Sequence record: HM035025
DNA: 64,000 nucleotides
Reading direction: 5' to 3' (one strand)
Origin: Shigella phage Shfl2
In this document: one piece after another, positions 40,162-61,663 of the stretch
How the letters are laid out: every line of letters starts with the position of its first letter
How positions within the stretch are numbered: the stretch's first letter is position 1
The notes under the pieces: model-generated
Told to the model about the DNA's origin: nothing
The model's database searches: none
Seen by the model: the letters and a program-made list of their open reading frames with translations, nothing else
Program-made: the position numbers and the translations under genes

Positions 40162-40632
40162 TTAATCATGTTTCCACACCCCATCGGTATTTGACCAAAG
40201 TCGCTGATTATCTGATCCTCGCCACAGCTTTTTAGTCGGAAGATTTTTCTCATACTTCCCATCAATAATAACATCAACATATTTAAGCATTTCTAGTTGT
40301 TTAATATCTTCAAACTTATATCCTGTCCACAACCAAATGCTTTTATTGGGATAAAGATTTTTTACTGTTTGAACAATACAATGAATAACATCGCGGTTAT
40401 CAGGATAAAGAGGGTCACCTCCAGTTATAGTTAATCCTTCTATATAATCATTATTCAAACATTCAATTAATTGTTTTAGTGTTTCACCAGTGAATGGAAC
40501 GCCATTTCTAGCATTCCATGTTGATTTATTATAACACCCTTCGCATTTATGCAAACAACCTGTAACGAAAAGAACGACCCTGCAACCAGGGCCATTCACA
40601 AAATCGCAAGGATAAAATCTATCATAATTCAT
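40162..40632 (-). CDS. nrdG: anaerobic ribonucleotide reductase activase (radical SAM)
   Basis: 156 aa; CxxxCxxC cluster (GCLHKCEGC). Confidence 0.92.
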   Translation of the reverse strand: MNYDRFYPCDFVNGPGCRVVLFVTGCLHKCEGCYNKSTWNARNGVPFTGETLKQLIECLNNDYIEGLTITGGDPLYPDNRDVIHCIVQTVKNLYPNKSIWLWTGYKFEDIKQLEMLKYVDVIIDGKYEKNLPTKKLWRGSDNQRLWSNTDGVWKHD

Positions 40633-42446
40633 TGGTGTTTAACCCTATGCATGATTTCTTTATTTTTGCCAAGATTAAATCCGCGCTCGTTCGGATTTCC
40701 CAAATAACCACATGTTCTTCTTATTGTGTTCATCTTTTTAGGATCAGTTTCTCCACAGATAGAACAAACAAATCCGTTTTCAGTAGGAGTCATTTCATGG
40801 GTACTTCCGCATGTAAAACACTTATCTACTGGCATATTAACACCAAAATAATCTAAATGCTGTGCAGCATAATCCCACACGGCCTCAAGACCTTTTAAGT
40901 TATTTTTCATATCAGGAAGTTCAACATAAGAAATGTGACCACCTGTCGCAATGAAATGATATGGCGCTTCACGAGAAATCTTTTCAAACGGAGTAATATT
41001 TTCTTCTACTGAAACGTGGAAACTGTTAGTGTACCAGCCTTTATCGGTAACATCTTTTACACTTCCATATTTTTCTGTATCAAGTTTACAGAAGCGGTAA
41101 CAAAGGTTTTCAGCAGGAGTCGAATATAAACTAAAAGCAAATCCGGTTCTTTCAGTCCACTGCTTAAGACGAGCATTCATTTTAGTTAAAATTTCTTGTC
41201 CAATATCACGACCGACAAGAATATTCAATTCGTGAATACCAATGTATCCCAAAGACACTGAACTTCTGCCGTTTTTAAATAACTCAATTATATCGTCATC
41301 AGGTTTAAGACGAACCCCGAATGCACCTTCTTGGTAAAGAATAGGAGCAACAGTCGCTTTAACTCCTTTTAAGGAACTAATTCTACACATCAATGCTTCA
41401 AAACATAAATCCATTCGCTCATTGAATAATTCAGTAAATTTCTGTTCATTGAACTGTGTTCCAATATAAGAATCTAACGCGATGCGAGGAAGATTCAGTG
41501 TTACAACACCAAGATTATTACGTCCATCAAGAATTTCATTACCAGTCGAATCTTTCCATACGCTCAAGAAACTACGGCAACCCATTGGAGAAACAGGAAC
41601 AGATGAACCAGTGATAGCTTTATTGTTCTTAGCCGAAATGATGTCAGGATACATTCTTTTGCTTGCGCATTCTAAAGCAAGCTGCTTAATATCATAGTTC
41701 GGATCGTCTTTATAAAGATTAACACCTTCTTCAACGAACATAACAAGTTTAGGGAAAATAGGAGTTATCCCGTCACGACCAAGACCTTTAATACGATTTT
41801 TCAGAATTGCTTTCTGAATCATTCGTTCAGTCCAGTCAGTTCCCGTACCAAATGTAATTGTTACAAAAGGCGTTTGCCCGTTTGAACTAAAAAGAGTATT
41901 TACTTCATATTCATAAGCTTGAAATGCATCGTATACGTCTTTTTCTGTTTTAGATTGAGCATAATTCAACGCATCAGCGATTTGCCATTTTTCTGCATCT
42001 TCAATATGTTTTGCATAGGTGCGTTTAACATAAGGAGAAAGTACTTTATCTACATTCGCAAAAGTCGTTCCGCCGTATTGATGGGAAGCAACCTGTGCAG
42101 TAATTTGTGCCATAATTGCAGTAGCAACACCGATTGATTTAGGAGTTTCAATCTGTGCATTACCGAGCTTAAATCCGTTCTCAAGCATTCCTTTTAAATC
42201 TACTAAACAGCAATTAGTAAATGGAAGAGCAGGGGAATAATCAATATCATGGAAATGGATAATTCCGCTTTCATGTGCTTTCATAATAAAAGACGGGACC
42301 ATATTTTTGGCAATGTGCTTAGACACAATACCAGCCATAAGGTCCCGTTGAGTTGGAAAAACACGAGAATCTTTATTAGCATTCTCGTTTAAAAGGTCTT
42401 TATTAGTTTTATGAATCAATCCTTCAATTTCTTTTTCAATTGTCAT
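40629..42446 (-). CDS. nrdD: anaerobic ribonucleoside-triphosphate reductase, uninterrupted
   Basis: 605 aa; C-terminal zinc ribbon and glycyl radical region; continuous ORF with no intron. Confidence 0.95.
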   Translation of the reverse strand: MTIEKEIEGLIHKTNKDLLNENANKDSRVFPTQRDLMAGIVSKHIAKNMVPSFIMKAHESGIIHFHDIDYSPALPFTNCCLVDLKGMLENGFKLGNAQIETPKSIGVATAIMAQITAQVASHQYGGTTFANVDKVLSPYVKRTYAKHIEDAEKWQIADALNYAQSKTEKDVYDAFQAYEYEVNTLFSSNGQTPFVTITFGTGTDWTERMIQKAILKNRIKGLGRDGITPIFPKLVMFVEEGVNLYKDDPNYDIKQLALECASKRMYPDIISAKNNKAITGSSVPVSPMGCRSFLSVWKDSTGNEILDGRNNLGVVTLNLPRIALDSYIGTQFNEQKFTELFNERMDLCFEALMCRISSLKGVKATVAPILYQEGAFGVRLKPDDDIIELFKNGRSSVSLGYIGIHELNILVGRDIGQEILTKMNARLKQWTERTGFAFSLYSTPAENLCYRFCKLDTEKYGSVKDVTDKGWYTNSFHVSVEENITPFEKISREAPYHFIATGGHISYVELPDMKNNLKGLEAVWDYAAQHLDYFGVNMPVDKCFTCGSTHEMTPTENGFVCSICGETDPKKMNTIRRTCGYLGNPNERGFNLGKNKEIMHRVKHQ

Positions 42447-57632: not shown

Positions 57633-57976
57633 CTAGTACTCAATCCTCGATTATAAGAATCTACTAAACGGTCAACCATTGAATGACAAGCGGCTTTATC
57701 TTTCTCCTCCGCAACTGAACATTCTAAGGTATTCCACTTTTTAGCATATCGTTTTAACAATGTATCATTTTTATATCTACTTGATTTATCTCTTTCTCCG
57801 TCTTTATATGCATATATTAATTTCTGCGCAAATTCAGCTTGGCATGCTTTATTTTTCCCACAATAATCTGCCGCAGTGCGGTTTACATATTCTCTAATTT
57901 CAGTATATGATGTATCTGCTGACGCATAAGCAGAAAATGAAATTAATCCTATACATAAAACCAAAATTTTAGTCAT
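57629..57976 (-). CDS. small secreted protein
   Basis: 115 aa; signal peptide MTKILVLCIGLISFSAYASA; four Cys in the mature part. Confidence 0.45.
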   Translation of the reverse strand: MTKILVLCIGLISFSAYASADTSYTEIREYVNRTAADYCGKNKACQAEFAQKLIYAYKDGERDKSSRYKNDTLLKRYAKKWNTLECSVAEEKDKAACHSMVDRLVDSYNRGLSTR

Positions 57977-58514
57977 TTACTATTTCCAAAAGTTTATTAT
58001 TTTTAAGGTAGTTAGCCTTTTCTAGGACTTCAGAAGCATATTTAGAACCTGCTTTAACATTCCATCCCGAATTATAAGAGGATATTGCTTTTCTTATATC
58101 GCCCTTATGTATATTTAACCAATAAGAAAGTTCAATGTACGCCCAGGAAGCTGAATTGGATCGTTTATTCAACATTCTTTTTATTTCAGCATCGGTCATA
58201 TTATAACCAAGTTCCTTAACTCTTGCTCGCATAGTAGGCAAATAATTTTGGAACATTCCATAAGCGTGATGCTTTGGTTTAGATTTTAAATTAACTCCGC
58301 CAGAGCTTTCTTGCCATAAAATAGCAGCCATTATATGACCTAATCCGCTCTTGTGGATATTTTTATGTGTTTTATATTTTCCATCCTTAGAAAATTGTTC
58401 CCCGAATTGATACGCGTAACGCATGTTATCGAGTTGGACATTACTGAAAGTATGCTCGGAGCTATGTGCCATCATTGAAATGGCCAATAGACCAGCGAGT
58501 AGTGCTTTTCTCAT
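57969..58514 (-). CDS. secreted lytic transglycosylase-like protein (SLT domain)
   Basis: 181 aa; signal peptide; ...WQESSGG...AYGMFQ resembles the SLT catalytic E-S and GLMQ motifs. Confidence 0.5.
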   Translation of the reverse strand: MRKALLAGLLAISMMAHSSEHTFSNVQLDNMRYAYQFGEQFSKDGKYKTHKNIHKSGLGHIMAAILWQESSGGVNLKSKPKHHAYGMFQNYLPTMRARVKELGYNMTDAEIKRMLNKRSNSASWAYIELSYWLNIHKGDIRKAISSYNSGWNVKAGSKYASEVLEKANYLKNNKLLEIVND

Positions 58515-58521
58515 GCTTACC

Positions 58522-58983
58522 TCATTGAGTTTTAATTACTGCTTTAGAAGCCTTTCCTGGTAAACGACGACTATTGATAATTGCCATCCTGCACTGAAGT
58601 GACGGGTCTTTGAACTTCGCATTAGGTTTACAAACTGTAAATCCAAGCCAAAGATTTCCATCTGTGATTTCTAAACGTCCAGGACGATATTCAACCCCAT
58701 CAATAAAATCCTCGTCAATGTCAGGACGCGGAGGCATACTTAGGAATTCATTAACTTCTAAAACATGGTCTTTTATTTTATGGAATAATTCAAAAACGTA
58801 TGTCTCATCAATCTCCCGTTGAATTGCGCGATCAAGAAGATGTTGAGAATATTTTAGATGAAACGATGAGACTCCTGCTGCTTTTGATGCCTCACGAATC
58901 TCATTGTTGATTTGACGAAACTCCGACTCAAAGTGACGACGAAGCTTATTTCGACGGATAAAAACTTCTGTGTTGATAGTCAT
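58522..58983 (-). CDS. regB: RegB endoribonuclease
   Basis: 153 aa; MTINTEVFIRRNKLRRHFESEFRQINNEIRE... as T4 RegB. Confidence 0.88.
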   Translation of the reverse strand: MTINTEVFIRRNKLRRHFESEFRQINNEIREASKAAGVSSFHLKYSQHLLDRAIQREIDETYVFELFHKIKDHVLEVNEFLSMPPRPDIDEDFIDGVEYRPGRLEITDGNLWLGFTVCKPNAKFKDPSLQCRMAIINSRRLPGKASKAVIKTQ

Positions 58984-59042
58984 GTTATTCTCCTCTTAAC
59001 TGATAGAAAAATTATACCACAGTCAAGAGGAAAAGTAAACAA

Positions 59043-59363
59043 TTATTCTTTAAATCTAATCAATTTATTCATAGACTTTGAAACTTCTGCACGAACCTCA
59101 TGTAGGTTTTTGAGTTGCTCAAGACGCTGCTCATAGTAAGCAATTTCATCTTCTTCGAGACAGTCCTGTGAATCTTCTTTAAGATAGCGTGCATAATCCT
59201 GGAAAGCGTTACGGACTACTTCCTGGAAGTCATCAAGACTTTGAATTTTCTTAGGAGCAACAGATACACGACGAGGGGCAGTATAATACTCATAACCAAA
59301 CCCTGCGCTTAATTGAGCCATTAATATTTTTCCTCTGGTTGGAACACAGCACGACAAGCCCAC
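59043..59363 (-). CDS. hypothetical protein
   Basis: 106 aa ORF. Confidence 0.4.
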
Positions 59364-59587
59364 ATACTGGCTTCTTTGAGTTTCGTTTTAGCAATAGTTA
59401 ACTGATCGAGGCTTTCAGCATAATTCTTCGCGAATTCACAGTCTTCACAATTATCTAGTGCTTCCCAAAATTCATCGTATAAAGCATCAAAGATAAGTCC
59501 TAAACGAACTTCAGCATCTTTAATAGCATTCACTTTACCGATTTTCTCTTCAGTATGTGGCTTATAACCCTTAATATCTTCAATCAT
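59321..59587 (-). CDS. hypothetical small acidic protein (vs.4-like position)
   Basis: 88 aa ORF. Confidence 0.4.
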
Positions 59588-59801
59588 ATTTTACTTCCTC
59601 ACCAGTACCTAAATCATATTCAACTAAACGAATAGGCTCATGAATTCCATATCCTTGAACAGAAATTTCTGTCGTAGGATAAATTCCGTTAATATCGCCC
59701 ATGTTCCACGCTTCATTAAATTGCTGTTCGCCTGAATTACTAAACCATTCAGCGAAAGCATTTAGCACATCTTCAGAACCTTCAATAATTATCTTTGCCA
59801 T
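59580..59801 (-). CDS. hypothetical small acidic protein
   Basis: 73 aa ORF. Confidence 0.4.
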   Translation of the reverse strand: MAKIIIEGSEDVLNAFAEWFSNSGEQQFNEAWNMGDINGIYPTTEISVQGYGIHEPIRLVEYDLGTGEEVKYD

Positions 59802-60163
59802 TACAGGCTCTCAGTAAAGGTACGAGCGATAACGTCGCGCTGCTGTTCCGGAGTCAGAGAGTTAAAGCGAACTGCATAACCGGATACACGGATGGTCAGC
59901 TGCGGATATTTTTCCGGATGCTTAACTGCATCTTCCAGAGTTTCACGACGCAGAACGTTTACGTTCAGGTGTTGACCACCTTCAATTTTAACCGTAGGTT
60001 GTGTTTCAATTTCAATTTCACGGGCATACAAACCATAGAAAATTTCTGGGTCTACAAAAGAGTCCTCTTTAAAAGTTTTAGAGACAATAATTCTTACTTG
60101 AATACCGTCTTCAAAATAAATAGTACCTTTATGCGTGCCTTCAAGAATTTGATATGCTTTCAT
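59801..60163 (-). CDS. autonomous glycyl radical cofactor (GrcA/YfiD-like), chimeric
   Basis: 120 aa; C-terminal ~65 aa ([59 protein letters not shown]) match E. coli GrcA as recalled, including RVSGY; that part is GC-rich (59805-59995), the N-terminus is phage-like AT-rich. Confidence 0.8.
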
Positions 60164-60170
60164 ATAAACC

Positions 60171-61084
60171 TCAATTAGAAAATAAATTTATCCAAGATTG
60201 TTCTTTAATTAAAAATGGCTCAGAATCATATGCCATTAAACTTTGTGTAATTAGTCCTTTAAAAGGCCCATCAATAAATTCCATGGTAAAATATGGAATT
60301 TTATTCATTAGCCGTGCATTAGGAGCCGTGCACAAAACTCTGCATCCTTTGAATACGCCTTTTTGTAATTTGTATTGCTTAAGATAAAATTCGCTCAAAA
60401 TGTTATTTTTTGCCAAAATTTCAAAATGATTCACCAATTTATTTTTAATAGTTTTTGGCGAAAAATAAAGATATTCGAAAAGTTGCGAATCTGTCATCAT
60501 TGCATTCCAATCACAAAAAATTGAGGACGAGTAATACCACCAATGCAACATTTACTATTGCAGCAGTACTGTACAGTGTCAATATGAGCATCATAAATCT
60601 TATCCATATCAGGAGATTTGACAGGCTCATCAATTATATACAAAATTCGCGAAAGCGATAAACCTCTGAACTTGCTTCCTTTATTACCAATAAAACTGCG
60701 CACAGAATCAGTAAATAAGCGGAATCGAATATCATCATTAGAATAACGCGAAAATTCCTTTTTAATGTTATTTGCAGAAATTTTAGCGTAAGCTGAAGTA
60801 TTAGAAAGAACAATAACTGTTCCGCCATCATACAACCAATTAGCAGCAAAGTTAGTCACAGCAATTGATTTACCGGATTGACGTCCACCATCTAGTCGAA
60901 GTGTACAATACTGTTTAAGTAAGTCTTCAAATGATAGGATATAATCGTTTTTACAAATTTCTTCTACTCTAGCATCAGAATGGTGTGTAAAAGCATTCAT
61001 CAGGATAGATAAGGACCAGTTAAAAATGTTCTCATTTCTTCTCTCTCTAAGTTTGGGCCATTCCATGGCGCATGAATTGTCCAT
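60171..61084 (-). pseudogene. terminase-like P-loop ATPase split into two overlapping frames (possible frameshifted remnant)
   Basis: ORF 60497..61084 has Walker A GGRQSGKS and Walker B ILYIIDEP but no SD and an N-terminus that runs through a leader hairpin; ORF 60171..60551 continues in the -1 frame; overlap contains an A6/T6 run (60515-60520). Confidence 0.35.
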
Positions 61085-61130
61085 TTCTGTATTTACCCAT
61101 TACCGCACTTGGGCTCGACCTTATTACAGG
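61040..61130 (-). repeat. repeated leader element with 9 bp hairpin, copy 1
   Basis: TAAGTTTGGG-CATTCCATGGCGCATGAATTGTCC-TTTCTGTATTTAC-CATTACCG shared with 61690-61770. Confidence 0.6.
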
Positions 61131-61189
61131 TTGGCGGGAATCCCTCACAAAATCATGAGGTCCAGGTTGTTCCCATATTTCTTATTTGC

Positions 61190-61663
61190 TTATTTGAACG
61201 ATTTAACGTACTGAATAGAACCTTTACTATTCACGAAAGCGATTTTACCATTTTTATTATACATGGTAGCAGTACGCTGATAGCCGTAAGTTTGCTTACC
61301 AGATTGATAACCAACTAATGCAAAATTATCTTCACCCATTTTATTCTGTTTAGCGCGAATGCGTTCATGACCATGTGCCATAAGAACCTTAGCATCACCA
61401 GTTGCAATGGATCGACGAGTTTTTTCATCTTCAACTGTATTAACAAAGTCGTCAAATGAATCAAATTTAGCGTGAGATTTATTATACAGTTTTCCATCTA
61501 CTGCATAATTATATCCCTGTACATCCATCTCAACTTCTGTACCATCATCCAATACAGCAGTGATTTTCTGTCCTTTTTTAAATTTCAAAAGATCAGTAAA
61601 AGATTCAGCAATAATTTGAGAATTAATAGCTGCTTCAGTAATAAATTCTTGATATGTTTTCAT
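61190..61663 (-). CDS. internal protein (IP) with capsid targeting sequence
   Basis: 157 aa; starts MKTYQEFITEA, i.e. the T4 IP CTS (MKTYQEFIAE) with a gp21-type cleavage context; body unlike T4 IPII as recalled. Confidence 0.6.
   Translation of the reverse strand: MKTYQEFITEAAINSQIIAESFTDLLKFKKGQKITAVLDDGTEVEMDVQGYNYAVDGKLYNKSHAKFDSFDDFVNTVEDEKTRRSIATGDAKVLMAHGHERIRAKQNKMGEDNFALVGYQSGKQTYGYQRTATMYNKNGKIAFVNSKGSIQYVKSFK

Follow-up and report, generated by a model that had tools for sequence, protein, structure and literature searches.

The 64,000-nt stretch of the Shigella phage Shfl2 genome analyzed here (sequence record HM035025), below called the window, contains a short gene whose two halves differ in base composition and whose 3' half encodes a glycyl-radical domain like that of the E. 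coli protein GrcA (YfiD). The locus raises the question of how this mosaic arose, that is, whether a host domain was joined to an unrelated phage peptide, as proposed in the initial annotation, or part of an existing phage gene was replaced, and which enzyme the product would serve. Neither the gene nor its function is new, both having been described in phage T4 under the names vs.6 and Y06I. As for its history, it is very probable that vs.6 is an old phage gene for a spare part of pyruvate formate-lyase (PFL), in which the portion encoding the radical domain was overwritten by E. coli grcA, apparently recurrently. The features of the locus, numbered by position in the window, are as follows.

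59801..60163, minus strand: GrcA-type gene of 120 aa, ortholog of vs.6 (Y06I); open reading frame (ORF) with an ATG start, assigned from Pfam, PHROG, and the comparison with T4
60169..60172, minus strand: GAGG Shine-Dalgarno sequence, located 5 nt before the ATG and sharing bases with the stop codon of vs.7
59986..60163, minus strand: AT-rich 5' half of phage lineage, ORF nt 1-178 (GC 0.32; N-terminal homology; conserved in T4-like phages)
59811..59985, minus strand: host-derived patch, ORF nt 179-353, aa 60-118, encoding the glycyl-radical domain (175/175 to an E. coli grcA allele)
59876..59890, minus strand: RVSGY glycyl-radical motif, aa 92-96, from the translation and the alignment to PFL 697-759 and 6OWR
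59879-59881, minus strand: codon of Gly95, the equivalent of PFL Gly734
59801..59810, minus strand: last 10 nt including the TAA, in the phage-type state, forming the 3' junction (alignments; ORF nt 354 is G)

The window is a Tequatrovirus sequence. Its vs.1-vs.8 block (57901-61178) is 96.6% identical to T4 at the nucleotide level, and a synteny comparison demonstrated the T4 gene order, vs.8-vs.7-vs.6-vs.5-vs.4-vs.3-regB-vs.1. The encoded protein shares 116 of its 120 residues with T4 vs.6, the four substitutions being V23A, Y46H, T54P, and R73H, of which only R73H distinguishes the two glycyl-radical domains. The placement of the ORF at 59801-60163, given in the initial annotation, proved exact (minus strand, 120 aa), and the RVSGY motif that it named lies at aa 92-96. 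The T4 homolog that it cited, Y06I, is actually an ortholog that occupies the same vs.8-vs.7-vs.6-vs.5 position.

The same annotation described a GrcA-like "spare part" protein, and this is borne out by the family assignments. The Pfam domain Gly_radical (PF01228) was detected in residues 60-101 with E=2.2e-18 and a score of 67.2 bits, the cut-off being 22.2. Gly95 lies within RVSGYAVRF and aligns to Gly102 of GrcA and Gly734 of PFL, the alignments to 6OWR and 1H16 (697-759) being ungapped; the corresponding E-values are 2e-41 for the GrcA NMR structure 6OWR and 4e-26 for PFL 697-759. The product is a small stand-alone protein of the GrcA type (~14 kDa) that has no catalytic barrel and is unrelated to the products of its neighbors vs.7 and vs.5; the structural features of GrcA, namely the domain, the motif, the size, and N-terminal homology, are all present. 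The full-length match (1-120, E=1.7e-62) to PHROG 1209 leads to a family that is still labeled "unknown function". By far the best family is the NCBIfam equivalog TIGR04365 ("spare_glycyl", E=1.1e-44), although the score of 151.8 bits lies under the curated cut-off of 170, compared with 233.9 bits for E. coli GrcA, because the N-terminus is diverged. RefSeq names T4 vs.6 (NP_049730) "autonomous glycyl radical cofactor GrcA", although the window ortholog scores below the TIGR04365 cut-off. In all, 1,586 phage records, some of them from T5-like and jumbo phages, have an annotated homolog.

The gene is predicted to be expressed from phage signals rather than from the promoter and leader of grcA, because it has its own GAGG and there is no E. 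coli similarity 5' of ORF nt 179. Inspection of the sequence shows that its TAA stop and the vs.5 ATG overlap, and a scan for promoters and terminators around the gene yielded none above the expectation from shuffled sequence.

The similarity of the 3' half to E. coli goes far beyond the protein level. The C-terminal 60 residues (E61-L120) are identical to those of E. coli GrcA, so the near-exact match noted in the initial annotation stands with a run of 60 rather than ~65 residues. Over ORF nt 179-363, 184 of 185 positions agree with the grcA allele found in 589 records, among them E. coli FDAARGOS_497; the sole mismatch is ORF nt 354, which leaves nt 179-353 identical throughout (175/175). 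Every one of the 5,426 complete E. coli genomes has a match of 95% or more to this tract, and in a megablast search of the entire window against these genomes the tract was the only match. The next-closest genera in the bacterial panel are Citrobacter (about 91%) and others with lower values. Judged from the sequence, the 3' half is E. coli DNA and not merely similar to it, because it is identical to GrcA in all residues and 99.5-100% identical to grcA in nucleotides, whereas PFL shares 49 of 63 residues and NrdD shows no significant similarity.

Base composition and codon usage change at the same place. The GC content is 0.492 in the tract and 0.320 in the 5' half (Fisher p=8.8e-4), whereas 185-nt windows across the 64 kb average 0.344 (sd 0.039). 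The level of the tract is reached only by windows that overlap it (fraction 0.0002), and the maximum for the 64 kb, 0.503, is also found there. The GC content at third codon positions (GC3) rises from 0.20 in the 5' half to 0.44 in the tract (p=0.006). Codons of the tract are of the E. coli style: Leu is encoded by CTG (6/6) versus CTT/TTG in the 5' half, Pro by CCG (3/3) versus CCA/CCT, Ile by ATC (2/3) versus ATT (8/8), and Arg by CGT/CGC. Thus, the GC-rich coding 3' half and the AT-rich N-terminal half described in the initial annotation were both recovered, the former as the most GC-rich of all 185-nt stretches in the window; the shift in GC is significant, and the 3' half aligns far better to grcA (184/185 nt, 60 aa) than to PFL (49/63 aa).

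Identity to E. coli collapses directly 5' of ORF nt 179 and directly after the stop codon. The 5' junction is located where similarity between the phage and host genes resumes, at TTGAAGGTGG (EGGQHLN). At the 3' end, the states 354G, 357T, 358T, and 360A are found in outgroup phages and in none of the aligned E. coli alleles. Both junctions of the patch are therefore inside the coding region, in stretches conserved between the phage and host genes. Identity of 100% to a host is also what contamination by host reads or a chimeric assembly would produce. The chance of such an artefact is practically negligible: the T4 reference and 641 phage records obtained independently all show this in-frame mosaic with identical junctions, no break interrupts the reading frame, and translation of the gene is coupled to that of vs.5.

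How the N-terminal half is interpreted decides between the two histories of the gene. The initial annotation regarded this half as unrelated to GrcA and hence the gene as a chimera, in which the C-terminal domain of host GrcA was recently captured, by what would have been an illegitimate event, onto an unrelated phage peptide. When the N-terminal halves alone were compared by hhalign, with profiles built from 13 phage sequences and 20 bacterial GrcA N-termini, the phage and bacterial families were aligned colinearly from end to end over 45 columns (Prob 85.5%, E=5.6e-6). The pairwise BLASTP comparison of these halves gave E=1.2e-4, and an intermediate phage sequence, L107, links the phage and bacterial N-termini with E=3e-12 and 2.7e-11 (BLASTP). 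A GrcA-type N-terminal region, the part of GrcA that is needed for efficient radical installation (PMC13450708), is thus present in the vs.6 ortholog, the match being weak but significant and colinear, and the N-terminus is a diverged homolog of that of GrcA rather than a foreign peptide.

The same N-terminal family was found in T4-like relatives (the IMG/VR loci L095-L106 and the Klebsiella phage phiKp16), in which the 3' half has a GC content of 0.39-0.49 and is only 78-85% identical to any bacterial grcA of the panel, which contained no K. pneumoniae. Full-length homologs without a host-like tract are also present in T5-like, Aeromonas, and jumbo Yersinia phages. Although the sharp break in composition and identity at ORF nt 178/179, together with an identity that, in a comparison limited to E. 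coli and the window, ends with the stop codon, is what a capture chimera would display, this origin is very unlikely: the N-terminal half shares ancestry with that of GrcA, the gene is equally full-length in the relatives but has a 3' half there that is not host-like, the 3' junction lies inside the gene, its last 10 nt sharing the states of outgroup phages, and both junctions are in stretches conserved between phage and host, as predicted for homologous replacement. From the earlier proposal of host capture, the derivation from E. coli DNA is retained, whereas the capture of a domain is not. We conclude that vs.6 is most plausibly an old, full-length phage homolog of grcA with an internal replacement patch from the host, since the relatives are full-length with a phage-like 3' half and the last 10 nt are phage-type. 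The character of both junctions argues for homologous or homeologous replacement, i.e., gene conversion, rather than illegitimate capture.

To estimate how often such replacement took place, alleles from 10 Tequatrovirus and 5 Mosigvirus phages were compared with 7 grcA alleles of E. coli and 1 of a cryptic Escherichia sp. Between nt 179 and 353, each of the 15 phage alleles is in essence an E. coli sequence, and the 5' junction is common to all of them. Four single-nucleotide polymorphisms (SNPs) segregating among E. coli grcA alleles are also found, base for base, in the phages.

204A/T: in E. coli, A in the FDAARGOS_497 type and T in BL21 and most others; in phages, A in the window and KIT03 and T in the rest
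219C: in E. coli, K-12; in phages, RB69, F27, and L089
192G: in E. coli, strain 7784; in phages, L089
282A: in E. coli, 485 genomes; in phages, L092

The sharing of 282A was found by a directed search, and the rough hypergeometric p for the sharing of SNPs lies between 1e-5 and 1e-2, according to which mutational universe is assumed and whether 282A is left out. The states 204T and 219C had been considered as ancestral phage states or marks of the tract border; this reading was dropped when more alleles identified them as E. coli polymorphisms (BL21 and K-12 types). SNPs 192 and 204 are located only 13-25 nt from the 5' boundary of homology, which is short for a crossover. Other phage SNPs are private: 261T and 273T of LF82-3 occur in none of the 5,426 E. 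coli genomes, which implies that phage alleles also mutate independently, and neither the full SNP combination of L089 nor 237G of L092 was found in the E. coli genomes, the 282A of the latter being present in 485 of them. Parallel mutation or recombination between phages could account for part of the SNP sharing in this small set of 15 phage and 8 Escherichia alleles.

Divergence between the two phage genera is far lower in the patch than elsewhere in the gene. Tequatrovirus and Mosigvirus alleles differ on average at 12.3 of 59 third positions in the 5' half and at 2.1 of 58 in the patch (~6-fold); for T4 versus RB69 the numbers are 12/59 and 1/58, respectively (Fisher p=0.002). Between the window and RB69, the gene block and flanks are about 79% identical versus 97-100% for the patch. 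The distribution of the tract in the phage database is bimodal, with 641 records at 95% identity or more, one between 90 and 95%, and 104 between 80 and 90%; those of the last class that were sampled in a spread listing are all from Klebsiella phages.

These Klebsiella phages provide a parallel case with another host. In the Jiaodavirus phages OM02 and JY1, isolated on K. pneumoniae, the GC content is 0.37 in the 5' half of the gene and 0.56 in the core, and the encoded proteins contain the Klebsiella-type LLDAVEH, where E. coli has LEDAVKH. Klebsiella-type grcA alleles were collected by a pattern search for bacterial context in (gut) metagenome contigs; the commonest allele, found in 18 of 36 contigs, encodes exactly the K. 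pneumoniae GrcA protein (GRCA_KLEP7). ORF nt 181-287 of OM02 (107 nt) and 181-281 of JY1 (101 nt) are identical to this allele, the tract being about 100-107 nt across the phages, and both tracts begin at the same 5' junction as the E. coli patch. An earlier estimate, in which the Klebsiella phages were only 86-91% host-like, was obtained with the panel lacking K. pneumoniae and was abandoned once the metagenome allele had given identical tracts. The Klebsiella phage tract represents an independent event.

Two further phages extend the picture. The gene of phage PKO111, whose host is K. oxytoca, is more diverged and not closer to K. oxytoca-type alleles; host tracking is therefore not perfect. 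In an uncultured phage contig (L109), a 56-nt exact run within about 74 nt of near-exact similarity to Haemophilus grcA was observed, while its sibling contigs have about 10 differences from the Haemophilus host over the same stretch; a Haemophilus-derived patch is possible in this phage.

The shared SNPs, the ~6-fold lower divergence of the patch, and the Klebsiella tract at the same junction point to repeated conversion, and host-to-phage exchange at vs.6 thus appears to be recurrent. An alternative is that capture or conversion happened only once, in an ancient phage ancestral to both Tequatrovirus and Mosigvirus, that strong constraint then preserved the near-identity to E. coli, and that the shared SNPs go back to homoplasy or recombination between phages; this would fit the 5' junction shared by 15 of 15 alleles, the complete conservation of the domain, which indicates strong constraint on the protein, and the private SNPs of some phages. 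Constraint on the protein, however, has no bearing on ~58 synonymous sites or on the ~6-fold lower divergence at third positions. Furthermore, phage alleles from both genera carry four polymorphisms known from E. coli, of which two are transversions, RB69 is reported not to recombine with T4-type phages (PMC6024577), and the Klebsiella phages had an independent event at the same junction. A single ancient event is therefore unlikely, and we favor recurrent conversion. The stronger proposition that the radical-domain segment of vs.6 is in ongoing concerted evolution with grcA of the current host is somewhat more probable than the contrary. In the mostly open-access literature that was searched, no prior description was found of host-phage conversion at this gene, of the nucleotide patch, of the shared SNPs, or of the Klebsiella patch.

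With regard to function, T4 Y06I is described as receiving its glycyl radical from the PFL-activating enzyme (PFL-AE) and as then restoring O2-cleaved PFL in vitro by forming an active complex with it (Wagner et al., 2001, as summarized in PMC8683613 and PMC13450708). According to the same two reviews, Y06I and E. coli YfiD/GrcA are the only two validated spare-part proteins, and none is known for other glycyl-radical enzymes (PMC8683613, PMC13450708). A literature search returned no in vivo phenotype for vs.6.

The initial annotation correctly noted that nrdD and nrdG, which lie at 40629-42446 and 40162-40632, are in the same 64-kb window, and suggested that the protein could repair oxygen-cleaved phage NrdD or host PFL. 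That NrdD, after loss of its C-terminus to O2, and not host PFL, is the partner of this spare part is most unlikely. Besides the presence of both genes in the window, this assignment can draw on the Pfam Gly_radical domains of both proteins, on a role in nucleotide metabolism guessed in an early comparative paper (PMC1524935), and on the Yersinia jumbo phage fHe-Yen9-04, in which the homolog is encoded two genes downstream of nrdD. It is opposed by the sequences themselves: the BLASTP similarity to NrdD of the window is not significant (E=2.6) and leaves the radical sites unaligned, the radical site of NrdD reads RRTCGYLG, with only some 25 aa after it, and the domain mimics PFL, being identical to that of E. 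coli GrcA and sharing 49 of 63 residues with PFL 697-759. Rescue of PFL is, moreover, the only activity demonstrated for Y06I (PMC8683613, PMC13450708).

With host PFL as the preferred partner, the following scheme can be proposed. Phage transcripts would yield the protein after infection, and the host radical-SAM activase PflA would install the radical on Gly95, as it does for the T4 ortholog in vitro. The activated domain would dock on host PFL that had been cleaved by O2 at Gly734 and replace the lost C-terminal domain, so that the repaired PFL could resume the conversion of pyruvate and CoA to acetyl-CoA and formate. The presumed benefit to the phage is that fermentative energy and acetyl-CoA metabolism would continue in microaerobic infection. 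The supply of formate would continue as well, formate being the reductant of class III RNR, which is encoded here by nrdD and nrdG.

For the gene itself, overwriting of ORF nt 179-353 by E. coli grcA would have proceeded via homologous or homeologous recombination. Host DNA fragments generated during T-even infection, combined with recombination-dependent replication, may patch a similar phage sequence. The first, homeologous event would have taken place at ~80% identity; re-conversion would then be far easier, because the first patch gives perfect homology.

Several consequences follow from these results. The gene is better described as a full-length, diverged homolog of grcA than as a fusion, a correction that is relevant to studies of the enigmatic N-terminal region of GrcA: the phage protein is a naturally occurring variant whose radical domain is identical, whose N-terminus shows only ~31-34% identity, and for which activation by PflA is known from the T4 ortholog. 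The host-identical tract, the shared SNPs, and the Klebsiella patches suggest measurable, continuing recombination between the host chromosome and lytic T-even phages, which is usually assumed to be negligible. If concerted evolution is true, vs.6 would be a sequence-readable reporter of recombination from the host to virulent phages and of the recent host history, even for phages that break down host DNA and contain modified cytosine. Overall, the gene is a known one, and the evolutionary side result is moderately interesting and testable.

Among the known systems, the closest is T4 vs.6/Y06I, which is alike in length, in its placement between vs.7 and vs.5, and in its mosaic structure with E. 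coli grcA; the T4 patch is of the 204T type and has the private R73H, whereas that of the window is of the 204A type with 0 differences in the core. E. coli GrcA (YfiD, 6OWR) shares with the phage protein the last 60 aa (175 nt), the RVSGY motif, the small stand-alone format, and a homologous N-terminal region. It differs in that the N-terminal ~58 aa of the phage protein are only ~31-34% identical to it and 7 aa shorter, and in that the phage gene has neither the grcA promoter and leader nor the ung-grcA-eamB context. The C-terminal domain of PflB (1H16, 697-759), the part that the spare part replaces, has 49 of 63 residues in common with the vs.6 protein and shares the core. In contrast to PflB, the vs.6 protein has no catalytic barrel and no Cys418/Cys419 and is thus no enzyme by itself. 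The radical site of T4 NrdD belongs to the same Pfam Gly_radical superfamily, is likewise liable to cleavage by O2, and has its counterpart encoded in the same window, but the pairwise similarity is not significant, the motif is RRTCGYLG, and the activase is NrdG.

With respect to evolutionary mode, the nearest analog is psbA of cyanophages, for which intragenic recombination with host psbA has reportedly been described (Zeidner, 2005; Sullivan, 2006). Both are phage copies of a host metabolic gene that contain host tracts, show a shift in GC content, and imply repeated recombination between host and phage. The present case is different in that it concerns a virulent, hmC-modified T-even phage that degrades host DNA, and in that the vs.6 patch is confined to ~175 nt, keeps an invariant 5' junction, and matches present-day host alleles at up to 100%.

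The vs.6 genes of two Klebsiella Jiaodavirus phages, vB_VIPKPNOM02 and JY1, contain a GC-rich patch of their own (GC 0.56), and were compared with a gut-metagenome contig (L183) encoding a K. pneumoniae-type grcA.

L181, 223-585: vs.6 of vB_VIPKPNOM02
L182, 223-585: vs.6 of JY1

The identity between this grcA and the Jiaodavirus patch is 100% across 101-107 nt, and the patch starts at the junction used by the E. coli patch in the window. A third host-specific conversion tract may be present in the vs.6-like gene of IMGVR_UViG_3300008607_000007 (L109), which shares an exact run of 56 nt (~74 nt near-exact), located within its final ~90 nt, with grcA from a Haemophilus sp. MAG (L072). Over this stretch, the sibling contigs L110 and L112 differ from the Haemophilus gene at approximately 10 sites.

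The 3' end of the E. coli patch in the window falls in a short stretch near the end of vs.6.

59806-59812 (nt 352-358 of the vs.6 ORF): GAGAGCC

A synonymous change (GAA to GAG) accounts for the phage-specific G at nt 354 of the ORF. The resulting GAGAG stretch lies 7 nt upstream of the vs.5 start codon (ATG), which overlaps the end of vs.6, and it may be retained as a ribosome-binding site for vs.5. Such retention could explain why the patch ends just short of GAGAG in 14 of the 15 phage alleles.

Comparison of the window with T4 and the Mosigvirus RB69 (region noted, 59043-59587 on the minus strand) revealed local drops in identity to RB69, down to 37-50%, in the 5' part of vs.7 (~60340-60490) and at the vs.4/vs.3 junction (~59385-59500). 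These are local hypervariable segments on either side of the highly conserved vs.6. Upstream of vs.8 (61085-61189 and the gene listed below), an internal virion protein is encoded instead of the ipII and denV of T4; denV was not found by tblastn anywhere in the 64-kb window.

61190-61663, minus strand: internal virion protein (157 aa, PHROG 3155) bearing the MKTYQEFI capsid-targeting leader

The window vs.6 protein (59801-60163, minus strand) scores 151.8 bits against the NCBIfam GrcA equivalog, under the curated cut-off of 170, and its PHROG (1209) is labeled "unknown function" despite the biochemically characterized T4 ortholog. Phage records name the homologs variously "hypothetical", "pyruvate formate-lyase", or "GrcA". 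Among IMG/VR contigs classed as viral, L116 carries a bacterial, Yersinia-type grcA (MITGIQITK...), and the products encoded on L157-L168 are C-terminal portions of full-length PFL. All of these contigs seem to contain host DNA, representing either prophage flanks or misclassification.

A vs.6 homolog is also present in T5-like phages (Demerecviridae) of E. coli and Salmonella (TrudiRoth, L006, and L130-L156). No host-like patch was observed in these homologs, the best bacterial identity being ~0.75, and their MKAYQ N-terminus is common to T5-like and T4-like phages; therefore, transfer of the gene between phage families has taken place without conversion.
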